Shown: in pieces, positions 16,336-40,386 of the stretch
Position numbering within the stretch: the first letter of the stretch is position 1
Layout of the letters: the number at the start of each line of letters is the position of its first letter
Sequence record: NC_028925.1
Reading direction: 5' to 3' (one strand)
DNA length: 64,000 nt
Origin: Escherichia phage vB_EcoM_VR25
Program-made: the position numbers and the translations under genes
Notes under the pieces: generated by a model
Database searches by the model: none
Told to the model about the DNA's origin: nothing
Seen by the model: only the letters and a program-made list of their open reading frames with translations

Positions 16336-17346
16336 TTAACGATAATAGGAATTGTGGTTGTCAAGATATACCTCTTCAACAAACTTGTCCCAGAACTTCA
16401 TGTCTACCTTATCGGGCATACCGTTCTTCGCAGCCCAGACGGCATTGGTTTCGACTTCATCGACGATTGCTTCAAGTTCAGCTTGTACATCTTTAAAAGC
16501 GTGTAGGCCTTGTTTGATTTCAAGGATAAATGGAGCCGTACGTAAAGGATATTGGAGATCGCCTGCTTGATAGATTTCCTTTAACTGGTATCCAGCACGA
16601 TAAGCATGGCTCAGAGCTTTCCAGTCAATACCTTCGTTAGCTTCGGCCTTACGGGCGCGTTCGCCATATTCAGCATCAAGTTTATTCAGAGATTGCTTAA
16701 GCTCGATTAATGACAAAGTAGTTTGGTATTTGCGACCGAGAACAGTATAAAACGTTTGAGGTCCAGTTTTCTCATGGTTATGGAATACCCATTCGCAGAA
16801 TTCGTTCTCTGGGAGACGATGCTTAATATCTTCAACTTTAGTGCGACGTTGTTTAGTCGAACCATCTTCTTGGTAGTCAACCCACTGTTCAGGAATCTGG
16901 TTAACAATTGCCAGTACACCACGTAAAGCCGCCAGTCTAGAACCTTTAACACCATATTTTGAAGCTTGCTTACGGACGTACCCCAAATATGCTTTCATGT
17001 TGGTCGTATAGAACCGTGAACGGTTGTCTTGGATAAATTTCCATACATCTGGTAAATCGGATTTGACTACCAGGTTAGCCGGAGTGTGAATCATGTCCAG
17101 AGCAACAGTTTCGCCTTCAGCCGCCAGTTTAAAGAAATATTTCAGGCTATAAAGCTCGTGGTCAACATCGTCTTTTGTGTTTTTGGTAGCCGTGTTATTC
17201 GTGTTCAAGTTGGTATGGTTCATAGCCGTACCTAACAGAATGTCACGTGGGTGTGGAACAAAGATTTCCTTAAAATCGACATCAGATTCTGGAGTACTTG
17301 TTCCGTAAAGATGGCTACCGAAGTAGCCTTTCATAACTGTTCTCAT
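16336..17346 (-). CDS. Pol-beta-superfamily nucleotidyltransferase-domain protein, 336 aa
   Basis: ATG start; N-terminal FGSHLYGTSTPESDVDF fits the NTase-fold G[GS]-x(9-13)-D-x-[DE] signature; rest unrecognised; start overlaps upstream membrane ORF. Confidence 0.55.
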   Translation of the reverse strand: MRTVMKGYFGSHLYGTSTPESDVDFKEIFVPHPRDILLGTAMNHTNLNTNNTATKNTKDDVDHELYSLKYFFKLAAEGETVALDMIHTPANLVVKSDLPDVWKFIQDNRSRFYTTNMKAYLGYVRKQASKYGVKGSRLAALRGVLAIVNQIPEQWVDYQEDGSTKQRRTKVEDIKHRLPENEFCEWVFHNHEKTGPQTFYTVLGRKYQTTLSLIELKQSLNKLDAEYGERARKAEANEGIDWKALSHAYRAGYQLKEIYQAGDLQYPLRTAPFILEIKQGLHAFKDVQAELEAIVDEVETNAVWAAKNGMPDKVDMKFWDKFVEEVYLDNHNSYYR

Positions 17347-20403: not shown

Positions 20404-20679
20404 TTATAATCTTTTAAACTTGAAACAATATATTGCAAATAAATCAGAAAAATGTCTATCAACCCATATTCTTTGCACTGGGCTAGTAACAGTCAGCATA
20501 TAATGTGCTTTTTGTAAATTTATTCCATTTTTATTCGGGCATTCTTTATTAACAGAATGGTACGTGCTTGCTACTATTTCAATTTCCCTTTCATATCTCT
20601 CGCTATCTGTTTGTGTGGGGATAAATGCAATTCCAGCAATAACAAAAATAGAGATATACGTCCAAATCTTATATATCAT
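20404..20679 (-). CDS. Membrane-anchored protein, 91 aa
   Basis: N-terminal hydrophobic helix WTYISIFVIAGIAFIP then a soluble Cys-containing domain. Confidence 0.45.
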   Translation of the reverse strand: MIYKIWTYISIFVIAGIAFIPTQTDSERYEREIEIVASTYHSVNKECPNKNGINLQKAHYMLTVTSPVQRIWVDRHFSDLFAIYCFKFKRL

Positions 20680-20686
20680 AAGGACC

Positions 20687-21259
20687 TCAGCTTGTCAATT
20701 CGAGCCAATGTTTCCTGCATAAAGATACGTACGATTCATTCCCACCGACTAACACTTGCTCGCCGTCCTTTACAGCAGCACCGTCGATTACTCGAGCGGT
20801 CATGGTTGCTTTCCGGCCGCAATGGCAGACGCCCTTTAATTCAACCAGTTTATCCGAAATAGCCAGAAGTCTGGCTGAACCGGGAAATAACTGACCCCGA
20901 AAATCTGTTCTTAGCCCGTAACACATAACGGGGATATTGTAATTATCAACCACTCGTGCTAACTGGTCAATTTGCTCTGGTAACAAAAATTGAGCTTCAT
21001 CAACCAGGACACAATGGATATCCTTTTGAGACTCGGCCCATTTATAGAATTCAAACAGGTTCATGTCGGCCGTTACCAGGTTTGCTTCCTGGCTAATACC
21101 AATACGTGATTTAATTTCAGATTCCGAGTCCCGATTATCAATAACAGGTTTTAGCAAAAGCACACTCATTCCACGCTCTTTATAGGAATAAGCTGCAGTC
21201 AGCAATGAAGCTGTTTTGCCTGCATTCATTGCTGCGTAATGATAAATTAAACTCGCCAT
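20687..21259 (-). CDS. tk: Thymidine kinase
   Basis: 190 aa, ATG start; MASLIYHYAAMNAGKTASLL (P-loop) and CHCGRKA zinc motif; very similar to T4 Tk. Confidence 0.95.
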   Translation of the reverse strand: MASLIYHYAAMNAGKTASLLTAAYSYKERGMSVLLLKPVIDNRDSESEIKSRIGISQEANLVTADMNLFEFYKWAESQKDIHCVLVDEAQFLLPEQIDQLARVVDNYNIPVMCYGLRTDFRGQLFPGSARLLAISDKLVELKGVCHCGRKATMTARVIDGAAVKDGEQVLVGGNESYVSLCRKHWLELTS

Positions 21260-21268
21260 ATCACCTTC

Positions 21269-21454
21269 TTATTCTGTAATACTTTCCAGATAATTTTCTA
21301 AATCGTCTGAAGCCTTATTAAGGGCTTCTAGCGCTTTATAATAGTCTTCACGGGAGTAATATTCTGTATGAAGTTCTTCGTCGTATTCGCTTTTAGCATC
21401 AACAACAGTTTCAATCATATCCAGAATTTTATTTTTCTGTTCTTTAGTAATCAT
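21269..21454 (-). CDS. Hypothetical acidic protein, 61 aa
   Basis: Track ORF (tk.x-type). Confidence 0.4.
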   Translation of the reverse strand: MITKEQKNKILDMIETVVDAKSEYDEELHTEYYSREDYYKALEALNKASDDLENYLESITE

Positions 21455-21462
21455 AATATACC

Positions 21463-21666
21463 TTAAAGAGTATTCACATAAGCAATAAGCTCGTTTTCTT
21501 TCTTATCAAACTGTTCGGCGATTTTTTCGTAATCTTCAGCGCTCACAGGACCCCATTCATCGTATGATTGCATTCCAGAATTCTCTTCTAGAAGCTCATG
21601 GATAAGCTCAAACAATCTACTTTTCTGACTAATACTTAAACTCATAACCATTGCACCTTTAAACAA
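21463..21666 (-). CDS. Hypothetical protein, 67 aa
   Basis: Track ORF. Confidence 0.4.
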   Translation of the reverse strand: MFKGAMVMSLSISQKSRLFELIHELLEENSGMQSYDEWGPVSAEDYEKIAEQFDKKENELIAYVNTL

Positions 21667-21860
21667 TATTCATCTACGTGTTGGACACGTTTGTTTTTGT
21701 CAATAAAAGTATATTCAACATACTCGCCGATATACCACTTATCTACGTTGTGAGGACTTTTTATAGGACACTTGGTTATCCGTGTTTCGGACCAGTGTCG
21801 AATAATTGTAGCTTTGTTTTTAGGGTCAAATGGGTGTGGATAATGTGCTTTCATAATCAA
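21642..21860 (-). CDS. Hypothetical protein, 72 aa
   Basis: Track ORF. Confidence 0.4.
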   Translation of the reverse strand: MIMKAHYPHPFDPKNKATIIRHWSETRITKCPIKSPHNVDKWYIGEYVEYTFIDKNKRVQHVDEYCLKVQWL

Positions 21861-22305
21861 CTACCACCAAATCAATATCAGGAGTAAACATATCAATTAA
21901 CCGGGAAACCTTATCCCAATCACCACCTGCAATACCACAGCCAATCCTGGGAATATAAATCACAGGCTTGAACAAAAGGGATTCTGCTTGTCGATTTAAT
22001 TCTATCATGCAATTTACTAAAGCGCCATAATCCAGATTTGGACCCGGTTCATACTGGGTATAAAGGTTATAGCACATACCAAATCCAGTTGGCTTATGTT
22101 TAAAAACGATAGACATATCACCGAGTTTTTCTCGGGAACCGTATTCAGTTGATGTTTTATCCATTTCTAAAATTTTTGGGTAAGCCTTTGCCAGTTGGCC
22201 AGCAACGCCTGACCCCATTGTATGGAAACAATTACAGCCATGAGCTATGATGTTTCCTTCAAGAAAGAGGGCGACAATATCGCCCTTAATATAGTTAACA
22301 ATCAT
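21826..22305 (-). CDS. Macro-domain (ADP-ribose-binding/processing) protein, 159 aa
   Basis: ATG start; KGDIVAL...IIAHGCNCFHTMGSGVAGQLAKAYP and IPRIGCGIAGGDW resemble macro-domain diphosphate-binding loops. Confidence 0.55.
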   Translation of the reverse strand: MIVNYIKGDIVALFLEGNIIAHGCNCFHTMGSGVAGQLAKAYPKILEMDKTSTEYGSREKLGDMSIVFKHKPTGFGMCYNLYTQYEPGPNLDYGALVNCMIELNRQAESLLFKPVIYIPRIGCGIAGGDWDKVSRLIDMFTPDIDLVVVDYESTLSTPI

Positions 22306-22661
22306 TTAGAGTTCAATCCTCTGTTATAGGAATCGACTAACCTGTCAACCATACTGGTGCAGGCCGCTTTATATTTGGCACTCGACAGAATACAATCCAT
22401 TTCAAATAGTTTCTTTTCATATTTGTTGGATAAAATACTCTTTTTCATAAGAGTGTGTTCAACATCATTTTGACCGTCTTTATATGCAGCAGTGAGTTTG
22501 GCACTGAACTGGATTACACAATCCACATTGCTTGATGCGCAATAATCTTTGGCCGTCCTCGTTGCATATTCTATGATGCTATTATTATCATCGCTCTGTA
22601 CTGAAGCTATTCCTCCCGTGCTGAATACTAACCCTATGGCTAAAGTTATGACTCTTACCAT
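22302..22661 (-). CDS. Secreted/periplasmic Cys-containing protein, 119 aa
   Basis: ATG start; N-terminal MVRVITLAIGLVFSTGGIASV signal-peptide-like segment; four Cys in the mature part. Confidence 0.5.
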   Translation of the reverse strand: MVRVITLAIGLVFSTGGIASVQSDDNNSIIEYATRTAKDYCASSNVDCVIQFSAKLTAAYKDGQNDVEHTLMKKSILSNKYEKKLFEMDCILSSAKYKAACTSMVDRLVDSYNRGLNSK

Positions 22662-23204
22662 TTAATCCACCGTTTTTAATAGGCCTCGTGATTTTAAGTA
22701 GTTAGCTTTTTCTAGGACTTGCGAAGCATACGTGTTTCCAGCTTTCACATTCCACCCTGCGTTATATGATGATAGTGTTTTTCTTATGTCCCCCTTGTGA
22801 ATGTTTAACCAGTATGAAAACTCAATATAAGCCCAGCGTGCACTGTTCTCTCTCTTGCTTATCATCTTGATTATTTCTTTATCTGTCATTGTCCACCCAA
22901 CCTGTTTTACGCGCTCGCGCACGGTTGGAAGATAATTTTGGAATATACCATATGCATGATGCTTATCTTTATTTAATCCTGTATTAACACCAGCAGATGA
23001 TTCCTGCCAGGTTAAACCAGCCATGATATATCCCAAACCATTATGTTGGTGCGGATTTTCTTTGTACTTACCATTTTTCTGGAACTGTTCTCCAAACGCA
23101 TAAGCATATTGGAGGTTCTCCATTTGTTCATTACTGAAAGTAGGCTCTACGCTATGGGCAGACATACTAACTGTCAATAGTAAAGTGGCTATTACTTTTT
23201 TCAT
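22662..23204 (-). CDS. Secreted lytic transglycosylase-like (SLT domain) protein, 180 aa
   Basis: ATG start; signal peptide MKKVIATLLLTVSMSAHS; SLT motifs TWQESS (catalytic E-S), HAYGIFQ, SSYNAGWN. Confidence 0.55.
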   Translation of the reverse strand: MKKVIATLLLTVSMSAHSVEPTFSNEQMENLQYAYAFGEQFQKNGKYKENPHQHNGLGYIMAGLTWQESSAGVNTGLNKDKHHAYGIFQNYLPTVRERVKQVGWTMTDKEIIKMISKRENSARWAYIEFSYWLNIHKGDIRKTLSSYNAGWNVKAGNTYASQVLEKANYLKSRGLLKTVD

Positions 23205-23214
23205 GAATTCCCCA

Positions 23215-23673
23215 TTAGATATAAATCACTTTTGTGCTAATTTTTCCTTCCAGACGATTAGAGTTAACAAACGCCATACGACAACACATGGTTGGAGACT
23301 TCCCAGGAAGAGCTGGGTTAACTGTCATTCCTAACCATAAGTTCTTGTCTGTGATTTCCAGACGAAGTGGACGGTAGTTCACATTCGGGTCAATTTGTGC
23401 TTCAACTTCCGGGAGTGGTTTCATCTCCAGGAATTCAACAATTTCTTTTACATGTGGTGTGATTTTTCCAAACAAGTCAAAAACATATTGTTCGTCAATT
23501 TCACGTTGGATTGCACGGTCCAACAGGTGTGGACTGTACTTAATGAAGAATGCTTCAAGGCCTGCTTCTTTACAAGCCTTGTTGATAGCATTATTAATTT
23601 TGAGGAACTCCGTTTCAAAAATACGACGAAGTTTATTGCGGCGAATGTAAACACTTGAATCGATAGTAGTCAT
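23215..23673 (-). CDS. regB: RegB site-specific endoribonuclease
   Basis: ATG at 23673 preceded by AAGGAG; MTTIDSSVYIRRNKLRRIFETEF...SPHLLDRAIQREIDEQYVF... closely matches T4 RegB; track ORF starts further up at GTG. Confidence 0.85.
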   Translation of the reverse strand: MTTIDSSVYIRRNKLRRIFETEFLKINNAINKACKEAGLEAFFIKYSPHLLDRAIQREIDEQYVFDLFGKITPHVKEIVEFLEMKPLPEVEAQIDPNVNYRPLRLEITDKNLWLGMTVNPALPGKSPTMCCRMAFVNSNRLEGKISTKVIYI

Positions 23674-23700
23674 GATTATCTCCTTTTGTTTGATGGGATA

Positions 23701-23730
23701 ATCATAACTCATTTCAACCTGCTTGTACAC
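23701..23730 (-). promoter_or_regulatory. Early promoter cassette upstream of regB
   Basis: Minus strand GTGTAC-18 nt-TATGAT then leader TATCCCATCAAACAAAAGGAG. Confidence 0.5.
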
Positions 23731-24035
23731 TATTCTTTAAAACGAATTAGCTTATTTAATGACTGTGAGACTTCAGCACGAACAGCGTGTAAATTCTTAA
23801 GCTGTTCAAGGCGTTGCTCGTAGTAAGCAATTTCATCTTCTTCAAGACAGTCGTTTGAATCTTCTTTAAGATAGTTCCCGTAGTCCTGAAAGGCCTTACG
23901 AATAACTTCCTGGAAATCATCTAGACTTTGAATTTTTGGCTGTTTCGATGTGAATCCAAACGGATTGGAATCATTTATGCGGCGTTGAGAAGCGGTTGAT
24001 AACTCATAACCAAAACCAGAATTAATCTGCGCCAT
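23730..24035 (-). CDS. Hypothetical protein, about 101 aa
   Basis: Track ORF 23730..24077 starts at GTG; first ATG at 24035 ([16 protein letters not shown]...). Confidence 0.45.
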
Positions 24036-24298
24036 TAGTATTTTTCCTCGGGTCGAAATACTGCACGACATGCCCACATGCTGGCTTCTTTTAGATGTTG
24101 CTTAGCATACTTAAGAGCCTGCACTGCATCCATATCTTCTTTGGTTTGTTGCTCTGTTTCATTTTCTTTCAAGATATATGCTTCTTCAATCAGAGCATCA
24201 AACATCAATCCAAGACGAACTTCTGCATCTTTAATAGCGTTCACTTTACCGATTTTATCGTCGGTATGTGGCTTGTAACCTTTGATATCTTCAATCAT
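24035..24298 (-). CDS. Hypothetical protein, 87 aa (vs.4-position ORF)
   Basis: Track ORF, ATG start; second ORF downstream of regB. Confidence 0.45.
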
Positions 24299-24528
24299 TT
24301 CACTTCCTCGCCAGTTGCGATATCATATTCCACCAAACGAAGGCCGTCGGTCCAACCCTGAACGGAGATATAGGTAGTTGGGTAAACCAGTTCTTTACCG
24401 TTCCATTGACCGCCGTCCCAGACTTCCAGAAAGTCTTGTTCACCTGGACCATTAAACCATTCAACGAATCTTTTCAAGGCTGCATCAGAGCCTTCAATCG
24501 TCAGTTTAGACATATTTTTTCCAGTCAC
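24295..24528 (-). CDS. Hypothetical protein, 72-77 aa
   Basis: Track ORF starts at GTG 24528; alternative ATG at 24513. Confidence 0.4.
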   Translation of the reverse strand: MTGKNMSKLTIEGSDAALKRFVEWFNGPGEQDFLEVWDGGQWNGKELVYPTTYISVQGWTDGLRLVEYDIATGEEVK

Positions 24529-24802
24529 TAATTAATCGCACATCCTGGTCATACGTCAGGAGGCTACGAGTTATAATACCCTTACATGGTCCAGAAATAA
24601 ATTCCAGAGTAAAGTAAGGAACCAACTTCATCAAGCGAATACTCGGAGCAGTGCAACGAAATCTGGACCCAATAAAAGGTCCAGACAAAAACACATACTC
24701 AAAGAAATTTGCTTTATTAAAGATTTCAAAATTCTTTACGAAATCTTCAGACCTAACCTTTGGAATAAAATAGATTTGGTCAAAAAGCTCTTCATGAGTC
24801 AT
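24506..24802 (-). CDS. Hypothetical protein, 98 aa
   Basis: Track ORF, ATG start; every codon checked against the sequence. Confidence 0.5.
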   Translation of the reverse strand: MTHEELFDQIYFIPKVRSEDFVKNFEIFNKANFFEYVFLSGPFIGSRFRCTAPSIRLMKLVPYFTLEFISGPCKGIITRSLLTYDQDVRLISDWKKYV

Positions 24803-25329
24803 TATTGCATTCCTATCACAAAGAATAACGGCAAAGGCTTATCACCTTGACACATAAATTTATTCATCATTACCTGATAAGCTTCATAGAACTTATCCAT
24901 TGCAGGGAGGCGAATAGGTTCTTCAATAATGATTAAAAGACGCGTAAAACGCAATCCACGGTACTTATGGAAATTATCTTCATCAAGGAAACTGCGTACA
25001 GTATCATAGACAACGAATCCAGGTCGTTCAACTTGAAGATGTGGTTGTGCCTTAGAAACCCGCTTTATTATATCACAGATTTCTCGGGAGCGATGTGAAG
25101 AACTCGACATAACAATCACATCATTACCCTTGGAAACCCAATCCGCAGCGAACTGTGCAAGGGCACTTGTTTTACCTGTTTGACGACCACCATCAAGTCG
25201 AAGAGTACCAAACTCTTGCATTCTTGAAGCAGGTTCATACCAGGTGTATTGGTCTGAATCTAAGCGTTCAATGGCGCGTTCAGCGAAGGCGTGCATTAAG
25301 GTTAGATAAATTGGAGTTAAAAATTTCAT
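24802..25329 (-). CDS. P-loop NTPase-like protein, 175 aa
   Basis: Walker A-like GGRQTGKTS and Walker B-like hydrophobic strand LLIIIEEP. Confidence 0.45.
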   Translation of the reverse strand: MKFLTPIYLTLMHAFAERAIERLDSDQYTWYEPASRMQEFGTLRLDGGRQTGKTSALAQFAADWVSKGNDVIVMSSSSHRSREICDIIKRVSKAQPHLQVERPGFVVYDTVRSFLDEDNFHKYRGLRFTRLLIIIEEPIRLPAMDKFYEAYQVMMNKFMCQGDKPLPLFFVIGMQ

Positions 25330-25490
25330 AGTTGTCTCTTAGTTGTAGGGCCATTCCTTGGCACATTAATTCGTCCATGTATCCGAATGTAAACCCCTTA
25401 CCGCACTCGGGCTCGACCTTATTACAGGTAGGGAAGGGTCCATCACTCAGAGGACACGACGTTCATGAGGAGAGGGTCGGTTTGCCTTTA

Positions 25491-25790
25491 TTAAAAAGAA
25501 CCAGAGCCTTTAATTGTGTTCTGGCGACCTTTATTTTCGAATTCAGAATGGTCGATTTCGTATGCTTGTGCTACGCCAAAGGCCTTTTTAACTTTAGATA
25601 AAGAACCTTTAGATGTAACAATATTAAAAGTATTGCCTTTGGTAAAATCAACCAAATCCACTTGCACACCCTGTTTACCGAGGCTTGCTACAATAGCATC
25701 AACATATTGTTGGTCTAAATTGCCTTGAACCCCAATTTGAAATGCTTTAGGAACTTTGGCTTCTGTGATAAATTCTTGATAAGTTAACAT
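25491..25790 (-). CDS. Internal-protein-like protein with N-terminal capsid targeting sequence (CTS), 99 aa
   Basis: Starts MLTYQEFITE, matching the T4 IP capsid targeting sequence MKTYQEFIAE; ATG start. Confidence 0.6.
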   Translation of the reverse strand: MLTYQEFITEAKVPKAFQIGVQGNLDQQYVDAIVASLGKQGVQVDLVDFTKGNTFNIVTSKGSLSKVKKAFGVAQAYEIDHSEFENKGRQNTIKGSGSF

Positions 25791-27216: not shown

Positions 27217-27697
27217 ATACTTTCCAAGTTCCTGTTTTAAATGTTGAGATTACACGTTTCGCTCGATTAGGTGTTTGTTTGTACCATTTGGATTGAGCCA
27301 GGTTAACAGCAGCTTCGTCCCAACGTTTCTGTTGAAGCAACCGAAGGGAGTTAGTAAACCCAGCAACGCCGGCTTCACCCATTTGGAAGACCATATTAAT
27401 CAGGGCACAGCGACGAACTTCGTCAAGACTATCATACACTGGTTTTAATTTAGCATTACGCATAACACTCGCACGTGCTTTTTCCACTGAACGGTTAAAC
27501 AAGGTTTCAGCTTCAACCTGGGTAATCCTACCGTTGCAGACGCGACCCATGAGCTTGTCGAGCTCGGCACGAGCAACATCTTTCGATGGGTTCTTAGTTA
27601 TCAGTTGCCCGATACCGATGGTCCAATATCCTTCGGTATCTTTATACAAATCCAACTTACAACCTTCATCTATGCGTAACATTTCGAATATATTCAT
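27203..27697 (-). CDS. e: Lysozyme (endolysin) gp e
   Basis: 164 aa, ATG start; [12 protein letters not shown]...[13 protein letters not shown]... very similar to T4 lysozyme. Confidence 0.95.
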
Positions 27698-27698
27698 A

Positions 27699-27726
27699 AT
27701 ACCCCCTTATATAGGGGTATTTATTA
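27699..27726 (-). promoter_or_regulatory. RBS-sequestering hairpin of gene e with embedded late-promoter-like TAATAAATA
   Basis: Stem ATACCCC/GGGGTAT encloses the G-rich SD just before the ATG at 27697; TAATAAATA overlaps the 5-prime arm. Confidence 0.6.
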
Positions 27727-28185
27727 TCCGAAAATTTGAGTCAAAACCTTGTACATCGATTTACCCATTACGTATTGCCATTGACTCGGTTTAATCAGAG
27801 CGAAAGCATCAAACTCTGGGACCGAACTACCATCCGGGAAGGTATGATATGCGGAGCATTTACTATGTCTGAATTGCTCATGCTCGACCGGGACCGTGTA
27901 CAAAAACAGGTGAAGGTTTTTGTTATCTGAATAACGGAACTCGCCTAGGTCTTTTAAGAATGCCGGGTCATACCGGGTAAAGCCTGTTTCTTCTTCACAT
28001 TCACGCATAGCTGCTTCAATCGGGGATTCACCGGCTTCAACATGACCCTTAGGGATATCCCATTTATGCGCAGGCATACCCGGTTTGCGAGAACCAGTCA
28101 CACGACCCATGAATAACTCTTTATCTTCAGTCATGAAAATAATGCCAGCAGATAATTCTTTCACCACGTTTTTCTTACTCATCAT
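27724..28185 (-). CDS. nudE: Nudix hydrolase NudE
   Basis: Nudix box GHVEAGESPIEAAMRECEEETGF; first ATG at 28185 gives about 153 aa (T4 NudE about 151 aa); track ORF extends upstream. Confidence 0.85.
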   Translation of the reverse strand: MMSKKNVVKELSAGIIFMTEDKELFMGRVTGSRKPGMPAHKWDIPKGHVEAGESPIEAAMRECEEETGFTRYDPAFLKDLGEFRYSDNKNLHLFLYTVPVEHEQFRHSKCSAYHTFPDGSSVPEFDAFALIKPSQWQYVMGKSMYKVLTQIFG

Positions 28186-28411
28186 CACGTTCCCAAGATT
28201 TTTTAAAGATTTCAGCCATAATAATTTCAATACGTGTTTCTGTTGATGGTGATTCACTATCAGAAGTTTGAACTCTGTAATCGGAAATTGGTCGGAACAT
28301 ATCCAAGTCACTTTCCAAATCTTCTTTTATTTTCTCTTCTGATGTTCCAGTATCATAGGAATACAGATAAGAATCACATGACTCAGATTTAATATAAATT
28401 GCAATACTCAT
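28175..28411 (-). CDS. Hypothetical acidic protein, 78 aa
   Basis: Track ORF; Ser/Asp/Glu-rich. Confidence 0.45.
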   Translation of the reverse strand: MSIAIYIKSESCDSYLYSYDTGTSEEKIKEDLESDLDMFRPISDYRVQTSDSESPSTETRIEIIMAEIFKKSWERDDE

Positions 28412-28995
28412 TTACGGCATTCCTCAATAAAAGAATTTAATGTATTTTTCTTAGCGATATCGTCGTATACCTTTTTAACTTTAGAAATACGAAAAGGTAC
28501 TTCAATAGTCATAGTCCATAAAAATGATGCAATAAGTCCAACAGCAGCAGAAGAAATGCACGCGCCCATTACAGCCACGGGGGCTTCATTTTTACCTGTC
28601 AAGAAAAACAACAGGATTGGTAAAAATAAGATTCCAGACCACGCATAAAACCTGGAACAAATTAACTTATCAAATTCATCTTTCCAGGTACGAAATCCAT
28701 ATTTCTTGCTATAAGAAATTAATGGGTCGGGTGTCTGTTCTTTGAGTGGTTCTGGTTGCCAGCCATTTACGATATAGCCCATTCTGAACTCCTTAATTAA
28801 AAGCTCTTTCATATTATAGTTGCAACCGGACCAATCTACCGTACTAGCTGCAATTCCTTCATCACCATCATCAAGATTCCGCCAGGACTTTTTAATAATC
28901 ATATTCTCACCACTTGGGATAATAATTCCAGCATTTTCTGACCTACGGATGAAGTTTGCATCAATGCCCATACACCCGGGTTCATAAAGGGCCAT
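28408..28995 (-). CDS. Membrane protein, 195 aa, C-terminal FIEECRK motif
   Basis: ATG start; two hydrophobic helices near residues 110-165; C-terminal ...NSFIEECRK resembles the FIKEC family at 32.8-34.1 kb. Confidence 0.5.
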   Translation of the reverse strand: MALYEPGCMGIDANFIRRSENAGIIIPSGENMIIKKSWRNLDDGDEGIAASTVDWSGCNYNMKELLIKEFRMGYIVNGWQPEPLKEQTPDPLISYSKKYGFRTWKDEFDKLICSRFYAWSGILFLPILLFFLTGKNEAPVAVMGACISSAAVGLIASFLWTMTIEVPFRISKVKKVYDDIAKKNTLNSFIEECRK

Positions 28996-29684
28996 TACCA
29001 GCCCTCCATAGGGAATTCCAGATATACTTGAGCGTTAACGCGGATTTCATTTGTAATCTTTTTAACACGGTCGGTATTACGAGACACACGACCAAACCAG
29101 CGCCAACCGTTACCAACTGTTTTCGTTCCAGTGTGCCAGGTCTGCCAGTTGAATTCACACAACGTGCGGTCAGGAGCTTCTTGAACTAAAAGTTCACCTG
29201 CCTTGATTTTTTCCAGAACTTCCTGGTGCCACCGGCGATAGATAAGTTCGCCATCAGGAATCTGACTGAATTCTGAAGTTCCCAGAGCAAAATTAGTAGG
29301 GCAAACAGAAGCGTTAACCAGACCCAGGATGTGTTCAGAATGGTAACGAGGGTTATCATAATCAGGTTGTCCTGCTGTAATAAAATGTTGTCCTGCTGGA
29401 ATATCTGGACGTGGTACATCATCATGGTGGAACCCTGGAATAGCAGGATACCAGCCAGGCATTAACATGTGGACACGGGAATCAAATACAATATCAGGGC
29501 CACATTGCCAATCTTCAGGCAGGTTTTCAATAAAGCTACGAGTAATAGGACCACCGTGTTTATGAGCAAAATAAGCATCGCAATTAAAGAACATAGGCTC
29601 ATTTTTGATTTGGTCATTACTGATATCTTGAGCAAATTGGCCAACTTCACGCATTTTACTATTAAAAGTTTTTGAGCTATTCAT
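28995..29684 (-). CDS. Possible Fe(II)/2-oxoglutarate-dependent oxygenase, 229 aa
   Basis: ATG start; candidate facial triad HHD (in PGFHHDDVP) and a distal His in WHTG about 100 residues later, followed by RVS (possible RxS); motif reading only. Confidence 0.35.
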   Translation of the reverse strand: MNSSKTFNSKMREVGQFAQDISNDQIKNEPMFFNCDAYFAHKHGGPITRSFIENLPEDWQCGPDIVFDSRVHMLMPGWYPAIPGFHHDDVPRPDIPAGQHFITAGQPDYDNPRYHSEHILGLVNASVCPTNFALGTSEFSQIPDGELIYRRWHQEVLEKIKAGELLVQEAPDRTLCEFNWQTWHTGTKTVGNGWRWFGRVSRNTDRVKKITNEIRVNAQVYLEFPMEGW

Positions 29685-29743
29685 AATATTTTCCTCATTG
29701 ATTGTGGGACCATTGTGTCATAGTCCCACTTGGATGTACACAC

Positions 29744-30703
29744 TTATTTTGAAAAAGGTTTAATCAAATGTTGGTTAGCCTTGAAACGTTTAACATAGTC
29801 TTCGCGACCCAGGGTGTTGTACATATTAACCACTTCCTGGTAATGTTCCCAGGCATACTCACGGAACCATCCAGAAGTAATGGAGGTACAGACTTTTTCT
29901 AGTGCAATATGGAAGCTCACGGATGGAGATATATTGAACTCATTAGGAACCTGCGAACGCTCCAGAGCAAGTACACATGCTTCTTCATAAACCCCTGCCA
30001 GTTTAATAACATCAGGAAGTGCTTCAAATTTTTCACGTGAGGTCATGACTTCTGAATCATCCTTCATATAGAACTTATATGCAGGCTTATCAGCAAGCGC
30101 CACGGCCTCGTGGATGGAGTCATGGTCAAGGGTATAGATTGTATCATTAAAGAAAGTTTTCTTGCCCACGTCTAGTTTAGGGTGACTATATGACAGTGTT
30201 TCTGTCTGACGTTGTAACATAATTTTCTGCAGTTCATCATTAAGAACAACACCCTTATTACGAAGGTAATTAATATGGCTCATGGTCTTCAGGAAGAATG
30301 GATTGTTCTTCAGGTAACGATGAGACAATTTAATTGCCAGACAAATATCAGGGGTCGCCCAATAAAAACCAGATAGACGGTCTTTCTGAATATTTGCCTT
30401 CGCATATTTGAGCAGACGATAACTGGAGGTAAAATCTTCCTCTTGTAGCTCATCAGTCAACTCACGAACACTTGTCAGGGCGCGGACGATATATGCTTCA
30501 AAATAGGTTTCTTTACCGTTGTGCATACACTTAAAAGCTTGCACATCTGGGTTATCCACATGAACATGCTGCCCCATCATCTGGGTTTTAAAGCTGTTCC
30601 AGGAACCCTGGTCAGCGATAAAATCCCAATCAGAGTTTTCAATTTTCTTACTTTCAATCAGACCGGCGTTATGTAACGCGCGAGAACCAATAACTAACAT
30701 CAT
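29744..30703 (-). CDS. Hypothetical protein, 319 aa, weak NTase-like N-terminal motif
   Basis: ATG start; N-terminal VIGSRALHNAGLIESKKIENSDWDF (GS ... DxD with a longer-than-usual spacer); family not recognised. Confidence 0.5.
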   Translation of the reverse strand: MMLVIGSRALHNAGLIESKKIENSDWDFIADQGSWNSFKTQMMGQHVHVDNPDVQAFKCMHNGKETYFEAYIVRALTSVRELTDELQEEDFTSSYRLLKYAKANIQKDRLSGFYWATPDICLAIKLSHRYLKNNPFFLKTMSHINYLRNKGVVLNDELQKIMLQRQTETLSYSHPKLDVGKKTFFNDTIYTLDHDSIHEAVALADKPAYKFYMKDDSEVMTSREKFEALPDVIKLAGVYEEACVLALERSQVPNEFNISPSVSFHIALEKVCTSITSGWFREYAWEHYQEVVNMYNTLGREDYVKRFKANQHLIKPFSK

Positions 30704-30724
30704 AATATTTTCCTCAGAATTAAA

Positions 30725-39701: not shown

Positions 39702-40386
<685 letters not shown>

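Follow-up and report, generated by a model that had tools for sequence, protein, structure and literature searches.

A tk.4/adfM orthologue in a VR7/VR26-type coliphage encodes a Gln-type macrodomain related to the DNA ADP-ribosyl hydrolase SCO6735

Introduction

The product of gene tk.4 of bacteriophage T4 is a macrodomain protein whose role as an anti-DarTG2 factor is already known. In a transposon-insertion sequencing screen of T4 (HIDEN-SEQ), tk.4 was the single gene depleted on a DarTG2 host (bioRxiv 10.1101/2025.11.20.689424). Clean deletion of tk.4 sensitised T4 to DarTG2, and the gene was named adfM, for anti-DarT factor, Macrodomain (bioRxiv 10.1101/2025.11.20.689424, November 2025). 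The same study found tk.4 to be dispensable on E. coli K-12 in both rich and minimal medium and important only in the presence of DarTG2; its data are genetic only, and it words the enzymatic removal of ADP-ribose from DNA as something that 'seems likely'. T4 without AdfA and AdfN remains DarTG2-resistant (PMC11257639), which is explained by the DarTG2 phenotype of tk.4. In phage T2, the Tk.4 protein was found in infected-cell proteomes, and RIL-seq captured pairing of the tk.4 transcript with the host sRNA ArcZ, the Tk.4 level being unchanged in ΔarcZ (bioRxiv 10.64898/2026.06.19.733364); this report mislabels tk.4 as a 'putative thymidine kinase'.

Two further proteins are relevant to the comparison. 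PhiKZ gp104, likewise named 'AdfM' in a Cell Rep 2026 paper, can strip a TNTC oligonucleotide of DarT2-made ADP-ribose in vitro, an activity that the N23A mutation reduces (PMC13309987). SCO6735 of Streptomyces coelicolor acts on thymidine-linked ADP-ribosyl-ssDNA, which it hydrolyses at a higher rate than do DarG and TARG1. It also provides rescue from the toxicity of DarT, and is inactive as either Q85A or Q85E; the mechanism proposed for it dispenses with a catalytic lysine and proceeds through an oxocarbenium intermediate with the help of an activated water (PMC9411070).

Here, we analysed a 64,000-nt stretch of phage DNA (the window) that carries a tk.4 gene, and establish the fold of the encoded protein, its orthology with T4 Tk.4, and its residue equivalences with characterised macrodomains. 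An initial annotation had suggested that a phage macrodomain at this locus could reverse or degrade ADP-ribose marks and might rescue the phage from DarTG-type defence. Our analysis supports this interpretation, and the rescue idea is right by the T4 tk.4 genetics, though already published.

Results

Gene and genomic setting

The features of the locus are collected in Table 1. The initial annotation had described a 159-aa ORF within the tk–regB interval, without giving its strand. Its coordinates proved exact and the strand is minus, and the two motifs that it quoted are present in the translation (GDIVAL...IIAHGCNCFHTMGSGVAGQLAKAYP as residues 8–43 and IPRIGCGIAGGDW as residues 118–130). The placement was borne out by the minus-strand gene order tk, tk.1, tk.2, tk.3, tk.4, vs, vs.1, regB, which matches T4 and in which each gene has a T4 counterpart; the ORFs flanking tk.4 share 71% (tk.3) and 45% (vs) identity with those of T4.

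Table 1 Coordinates of the tk.4/adfM features in the window.
Feature	Position	Strand	Description
tk.4/adfM CDS	21826..22305 (including stop codon)	(-)	159-aa single-domain macrodomain protein, ATG start
Start region	22302..22322	(-)	GAGG Shine-Dalgarno 22318..22321; ATG 22303..22305
Residues 22–36, HGCNCFHTMGSGVAG	22198..22242	(-)	β-strand end and predicted first (phosphate-binding) loop with invariant N25, C26, G33, A35 and near-invariant H22
Residues 80–84, NLYTQ	22054..22068	(-)	Family signature with invariant Gln84; hhalign and hmmsearch alignments
Residues 119–130, PRIGCGIAGGDW	21916..21951	(-)	Predicted second (substrate/diphosphate-binding) loop; alignments to TARG1, BT1257, SCO6735
tk.4 3' end/tk.3 start overlap, 29 nt	21826..21854	(-)	tk.3 ATG 21852..21854

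The tk.4 start codon shares the sequence ATGA with the vs stop codon, and the GAGG lies 12 nt upstream of the ATG. This overlap implies co-transcription, and makes translational coupling with vs possible. At the other end of the gene, the overlap with tk.3 is also annotated in phage VR26 at the same length. A scan of positions 20500–25500 returned 16 promoter-like sites (13.7 in shuffled sequence) and 5 terminator-like sites (3.6 in shuffled sequence), in neither case an excess, and the scan is thus uninformative on transcription units. One site flagged as terminator-like, a perfect 8-bp-stem hairpin (AGGGCGATATTGTCGCCCT) with a T-rich tail at 22268..22286 (-), lies within tk.4 codons 7–13; sites of this kind were not above the shuffled controls (5 vs 3.6).

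Relatives among T4-like phages

In Escherichia phage vB_EcoM_VR26, an annotated CDS (YP_009213949) encodes a protein with 100% identity to the tk.4 product and is described as 'phosphatase; similar to bacteriophage T4 Tk.4'. The 3.2-kb stretch around tk.4 is 99% identical to VR26 and VR7, and 92–97% identical to SP18, UPEC01 and the TH-series phages, with 94.6% over the full length for PSD2001. VR26 is classified in Straboviridae, Tevenvirinae, Gaprivervirus, and the window is from a VR7/VR26-type T4-like coliphage of this genus. The identity in VR26, the Pfam and PHROG matches described below, and the spread among phages establish that the gene is not a chance ORF.

Against T4 Tk.4 (NP_049723, 155 aa), the window protein showed 59% identity (E 2e-71), gapless over 155 residues. 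T4 tk.4 is annotated as 'phosphatase; contains A1pp phosphatase motif' and is flanked by tk.3 and vs. The window gene is therefore a syntenic, full-length orthologue of T4 tk.4; the 59% identity and the shared tk.3–tk.4–vs order resolve the initial uncertainty over this homology.

Elsewhere, the window departs from VR26 at several points. A 61-aa tk.1-like ORF at 21269..21454 (-), with 40% identity to T4 Tk.1, lies on a segment of about 190 bp (21272–21461) that is missing in the otherwise collinear, 97–99% identical VR26; the window thus has the full T4 set of tk.1, tk.2 and tk.3, and VR26 has tk.2 and tk.3 only. Positions 27351..30716 are 83–87% identical to VR26 (L002 26590..30593), whereas nearly all other aligned segments are at 92–99%. 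The window lacks a counterpart of the VR26 gp129 'restriction endonuclease' (L002 28968..29615), and its gp128 homologue (28995..29684) is directly followed by a gp130 homologue (29744..30703).

Several other genes of the window relate to nucleotides or ADP-ribose. Among them are the nrdC.11 nucleotidyltransferase gene (~16339..17346 (-)) and a homologue of the anti-CBASS protein 57B/Acb1 (~39705..40157 (-)) that is 100% identical to its VR26 counterpart; the RefSeq label 'RNA ligase' for the latter is probably a misnomer. The Nudix hydrolase gene nudE (~27727..28182 (-)) is 98% identical to that of VR26, and, speculatively, NudE might act on ADP-ribose freed by Tk.4.

Macro fold and class

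The resemblance to macrodomains that had been noticed by eye was confirmed by profile and by structure prediction. The Pfam Macro family (PF01661) matched the window protein at E 1.5e-8, with 35 bits against a gathering cut-off of 22, over profile positions 2–117 of 118, and PHROG 335 matched at E 1e-70. An AlphaFold2 model, built on an alignment of 54 homologues (down to ~40% identity), had a mean pLDDT of 93.3 and a pTM of 0.88, and displayed the three-layer α/β/α macro fold, one of the outcomes on which the initial annotation had made its proposal depend. In a Foldseek search against the PDB, the top matches were TARG1, Poa1p, BT1257 and DarG macrodomains (E 7.5e-10 to 3e-7, TM 0.7–0.83), which places the window protein in the ALC1-like macrodomain class. 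By structure and sequence together, its nearest neighbours are in this class, not among the MacroD, PARG or viral types.

Active-site residues

Conservation was assessed in three sets: 54 homologues, 120 homologues from a word-indexed search, and another 139 representatives with less than 50% mutual identity. Across the 120 and 139 sequences (259 homologues), no substitution occurs at Gln84, Asn25 or Tyr82, and His22 is nearly invariant. P119, G122, G124 and W130 are likewise invariant or nearly so, and the family signature reads HGCNC ... NxYTQ ... P-IG-G. Both glycine-rich loops, which are predicted to bind ADP-ribose, are conserved across the 54, 120 and 139 sequences. These loops correspond to the two motifs first noticed in the ORF, and it is here that the family is most conserved.

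In profile alignments, Gln84 shares a column with K80 of Taq DarG and K84 of TARG1, both catalytic lysines, and with Gln85 of SCO6735; Bacteroides BT1257 likewise has Gln. The Ala126 column corresponds to the catalytic Asp125 of TARG1, the sequence of which was checked against the PDB. With Q84 and A126 at these positions, a TARG1-type Lys/Asp dyad is ruled out. The residues that define Gln-type membership, Gln at the Lys position together with the His and Asn of HxCN, are all present in the window protein.

We then compared the family with its characterised relatives. The window protein and SCO6735 share 26% identity (E 3e-14), with H22, N25, N80 and Q84 equivalent to H24, N27, N81 and Q85, respectively; the SCO6735 sequence was taken from the PDB alignment, and its numbering was checked against PMC9411070. 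The family profile (hhalign) matched SCO6735 at 98.8% (E 1.4e-16), higher than Taq DarG (97.4%, E 9e-12) and PhiKZ AdfM (96.4%, E 1.3e-9). By profile match, the closest characterised relative of the Tk.4 family is SCO6735.

Tk.4 could instead be a small-molecule hydrolase. The 'phosphatase' label carried by T4 and VR26 would make it a Poa1p-like ADP-ribose-1''-phosphate phosphatase; it might also deacetylate O-acetyl-ADP-ribose or degrade ADPR-derived immune signals such as Thoeris gcADPR. H22 aligns with Poa1p H23 and T29 with S30, the residues mutated in deposited Poa1p structures, the T29 position being variable within the family (T, V, L, Q, A or S). The Poa1p match is weaker than those to BT1257 and SCO6735, and HMMER leaves the central region unaligned to Poa1p. 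The label itself goes back to homology transfer and not to an assay, and SCO6735, a relative of the Gln type, hydrolyses ADP-ribosyl-DNA. Furthermore, the T4 tk.4 phenotype is specific to DarTG2, with none outside DarTG2 in the tested conditions, and Thoeris is absent from E. coli K-12. We consider a small-molecule substrate very improbable on this evidence, and favour DNA-linked ADP-ribose as the target.

Comparison with DarG and the AdfM name

The NCBIfam DarG equivalog (NF048014, cut-off 250 bits) scored the window protein at 30.7 bits and T4 Tk.4 at 30.3 bits, against 137.8 bits for PhiKZ gp104, and the window match covers model positions 2–147 of 338 only. Scores with the PADLOC DarG model were similarly divided (29.7 bits for the window protein, 36 bits for T4 Tk.4 and 132.9 bits for gp104). 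We rejected an orphan DarG antitoxin as the identity of the window protein, based on the score of ~30 bits (133–138 bits for gp104), the missing catalytic Lys, the missing DarT-binding domain, and no DarT nearby.

PhiKZ gp104 retains the FPTK motif, and its match to M. tuberculosis DarG has an E of 9e-25. Its BLASTP alignment with the window protein reached 23 bits over 31 residues, and this, together with a profile match weaker than that to SCO6735, rules out a common family for the two phage proteins. The name AdfM was coined independently for two clades: T4 Tk.4, which is Gln-type and SCO6735-like, and PhiKZ gp104, which is Lys-type and DarG-like. This is a name collision, and findings on one AdfM should not be passed to the other without testing.

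Distribution and gene neighbourhoods

Relatives were found by tblastn in 2,780 of 50,697 phage records, including T4-like phages of many hosts; judged from phage names, the others include Ackermannviridae (CBA120, Vi01), Felix-O1-like, PAK_P1/PaP1-like Pseudomonas, Vibrio and Campylobacter phages. A BFVD search also indicated a wide viral distribution, and an exhaustive profile search, which covered 1.84 billion cluster representatives, returned 1,176 hits with E<=1e-30 and 9,570 with E<=1e-10. Approximately 14% of the family representatives (19/139) exceed 200 aa through N- or C-terminal extensions (including P0137, P0140, P0143, P0158 and P0228, and BFVD entries Q6J2P1, G0YPT3 and A0A481YV05); such long members include tk.4 of Acinetobacter phage 133 (245 aa) and a 302-aa protein of Marseillevirus labelled 'SNF2 subfamily protein'.

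We investigated 80 bacterial chromosomal loci with relatives at 33–43% identity (Ruegeria, Desulfobacter, Hyphomicrobiaceae, Verrucomicrobia and others). A tblastn search with P. aeruginosa DarT2 as the single query found no significant DarT2 within 5 kb of these 80 relatives (best E 0.83); the limited sensitivity of one query means that this missing DarT pairing is absence of evidence only. Neighbour clustering revealed no conserved partner gene, the largest cluster being rpoC in 7 of 64 loci, all of one lineage. As far as one DarT query can tell, the Gln-type clade appears to be standalone, like SCO6735. The description 'orphan antitoxin' would then suit T4-type AdfM less well than that of a standalone hydrolase recruited by the phage; PhiKZ gp104, in contrast, is DarG-derived.

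These neighbourhoods bear on whether Tk.4 might protect without catalysis, mainly binding and inhibiting DarT2 stoichiometrically in the manner of AdfA, AdfB and the DarG C-terminal domain, with no hydrolysis of ADP-ribosyl-DNA. Catalytically dead SCO6735 Q85A is a stronger inhibitor of DarT in vitro than the inactive forms of DarG and TARG1 (PMC9411070), so that protection could occur without hydrolysis, and the T4 tk.4 data are genetic only. Against inhibition alone, H22, N25, Y82, Q84 and both loops are kept in hundreds of distant homologues, including the bacterial ones with no DarT detected within 5 kb. Such conservation indicates that selection acts on catalysis rather than on a surface for toxin binding. 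In addition, the protein is a 159-aa single domain that lacks the DarT-binding domain of DarG. Stoichiometric inhibition as the main activity is accordingly very unlikely in our view, and enzymatic hydrolysis of ADP-ribosyl-DNA remains the preferred reading.

Gene neighbours of another kind were observed in a few cases. On a Cocleimonas MAG contig (L014 2592..4937), the macrodomain gene lies beside genes for a putative ribose-phosphate pyrophosphokinase and a nicotinamide phosphoribosyltransferase, as judged from translations, and in three Vibrio phage matches (H66, H73, H74) the gene adjoining the macrodomain is annotated as ribose-phosphate pyrophosphokinase. These NAD+/PRPP salvage neighbours hint that, in those phages, the macrodomain may be linked to NAD+ reconstitution modules.

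Discussion

We consider it highly probable that the Gaprivervirus tk.4/adfM orthologue hydrolyses DarT2-made ADP-ribosyl-thymidine on phage ssDNA, in a Gln84-dependent and lysine-independent manner, and so restores replication. In the proposed sequence of events, tk.4 would be expressed together with the neighbouring pre-replicative genes. Infection causes host DarTG2 to release the toxin DarT2, which ADP-ribosylates thymidines in ssDNA TNTC motifs and thereby prevents the phage DNA from being replicated. Binding of the ADP-ribose by Tk.4 most likely involves its two conserved loops, and the protein would then cleave the ribose–thymine bond, leaving replicable DNA again. The chemistry is probably SCO6735-like, with Gln84 positioning the substrate for attack by an activated water through an oxocarbenium intermediate, whereas DarG and TARG1 use a lysine. 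The window orthologue presumably shares the anti-DarTG2 role of T4 Tk.4, and protection by any Tk.4 protein would proceed through enzymatic removal of ADP-ribose from DNA.

T4-type phages themselves encode Alt, ModA and ModB, the genes for which lie outside the window, and Tk.4 might conceivably serve to reverse ADP-ribosylation of protein or RNA, be it these phage marks, as the initial annotation had suggested, or those of host defences such as the mRNA-modifying CmdT. Alt and Mod modify arginine, however, and cleavage of that linkage is not known for ALC1-like macrodomains. Both SCO6735 and TARG1 also remove Glu/Asp-linked protein ADP-ribose, which is in favour of such a role, but SCO6735 strongly prefers DNA over protein substrate (PMC9411070), and tk.4 is dispensable on E. 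coli K-12 except under DarTG2. Reversal of protein or RNA marks is, taken together, most improbable, and we retain ADP-ribosyl-DNA as the expected substrate.

The size of the family (9,570 representatives at the looser threshold) and the fact that no DarT was detected beside its bacterial members in the single-query search indicate that DarT2 marks need not be the sole or original substrate. A bolder proposal, which we regard as rather doubtful at present, is that the Tk.4 clade represents an independent phage recruitment of a widespread, standalone Gln-type DNA ADP-ribosyl hydrolase, convergent with the DarG-derived PhiKZ AdfM, and with substrates beyond DarT2 marks (e.g. other base-linked or Glu/Asp-linked ADP-ribose). 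If this wider substrate range is true, a single small gene would be enough against several defences that rely on ADP-ribosyltransferases.

For annotation, tk.4/adfM can be assigned with confidence, replacing 'phosphatase' or 'hypothetical protein'. The NxYTQ signature, together with Q84, N25 and H22, provides mutagenesis targets for the enzymatic step of T4-type AdfM, which in the T4 study is an inference.

The window protein can be set against each of the known systems in turn. Yeast Poa1p (6LFQ) is distinguished by a large central insertion and a reported substrate of ADPr-1''-phosphate, and human TARG1 (C6orf130; 4J5S) by its K84/D125 dyad, replaced by Q84/A126 in the window protein. Relative to the DarG macrodomain (T. 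aquaticus 5M31/5M3E, M. tuberculosis 5M3I), the FPTK motif is changed to LYTQ, with Gln in place of Lys80; DarG moreover has a C-terminal DarT-binding domain and an adjacent darT, whereas the window protein is without both and has vs and tk.3 as neighbours. PhiKZ gp104 is, like the window protein, a phage single macrodomain countering DarTG2, with its active-site Asn N23 equivalent to N25, but it belongs to the true DarG-type subfamily, has enzymatic activity shown in vitro, and is imported into the phage nucleus.

Closer in type are S. coelicolor SCO6735 (PDB 5E3B) and Bacteroides BT1257 (2FG1/2AFC), both standalone Gln-type ALC1-like proteins at 26–29% identity. SCO6735 is a chromosomal DNA-damage-regulated gene, whereas tk.4 in the window is phage-encoded. 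The DNA-positioning lysines K34 and K89 of SCO6735 and its long mobile loop are absent from the window protein in the family alignments: Lys34 (GKG), important for DNA activity, is replaced by Ser32, and by Ala/Ser/Gly across the Tk.4 family (MG[AS]G), and in place of the mobile loop with K89/K93, Gln84 is followed by a loop with 5 fewer residues and no Lys. With these substitutions, DNA binding must differ from that of SCO6735.

T4 Tk.4 remains the nearest system of all. It differs from the window protein in 41% of residues, the window protein being longer by 4 aa at the C-terminus; its second loop reads IGAGIGKGNW (IGCGIAGGDW in the window protein), its tk.4/tk.3 overlap is 4 nt (29 nt in the window), and the anti-DarTG2 phenotype has been demonstrated in T4 only. 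The two genes nevertheless agree in their position between tk.3 and vs, in the 4-nt ATGA overlap with vs, and in their assignment to PHROG 335, and the two proteins have every family-invariant residue in common.
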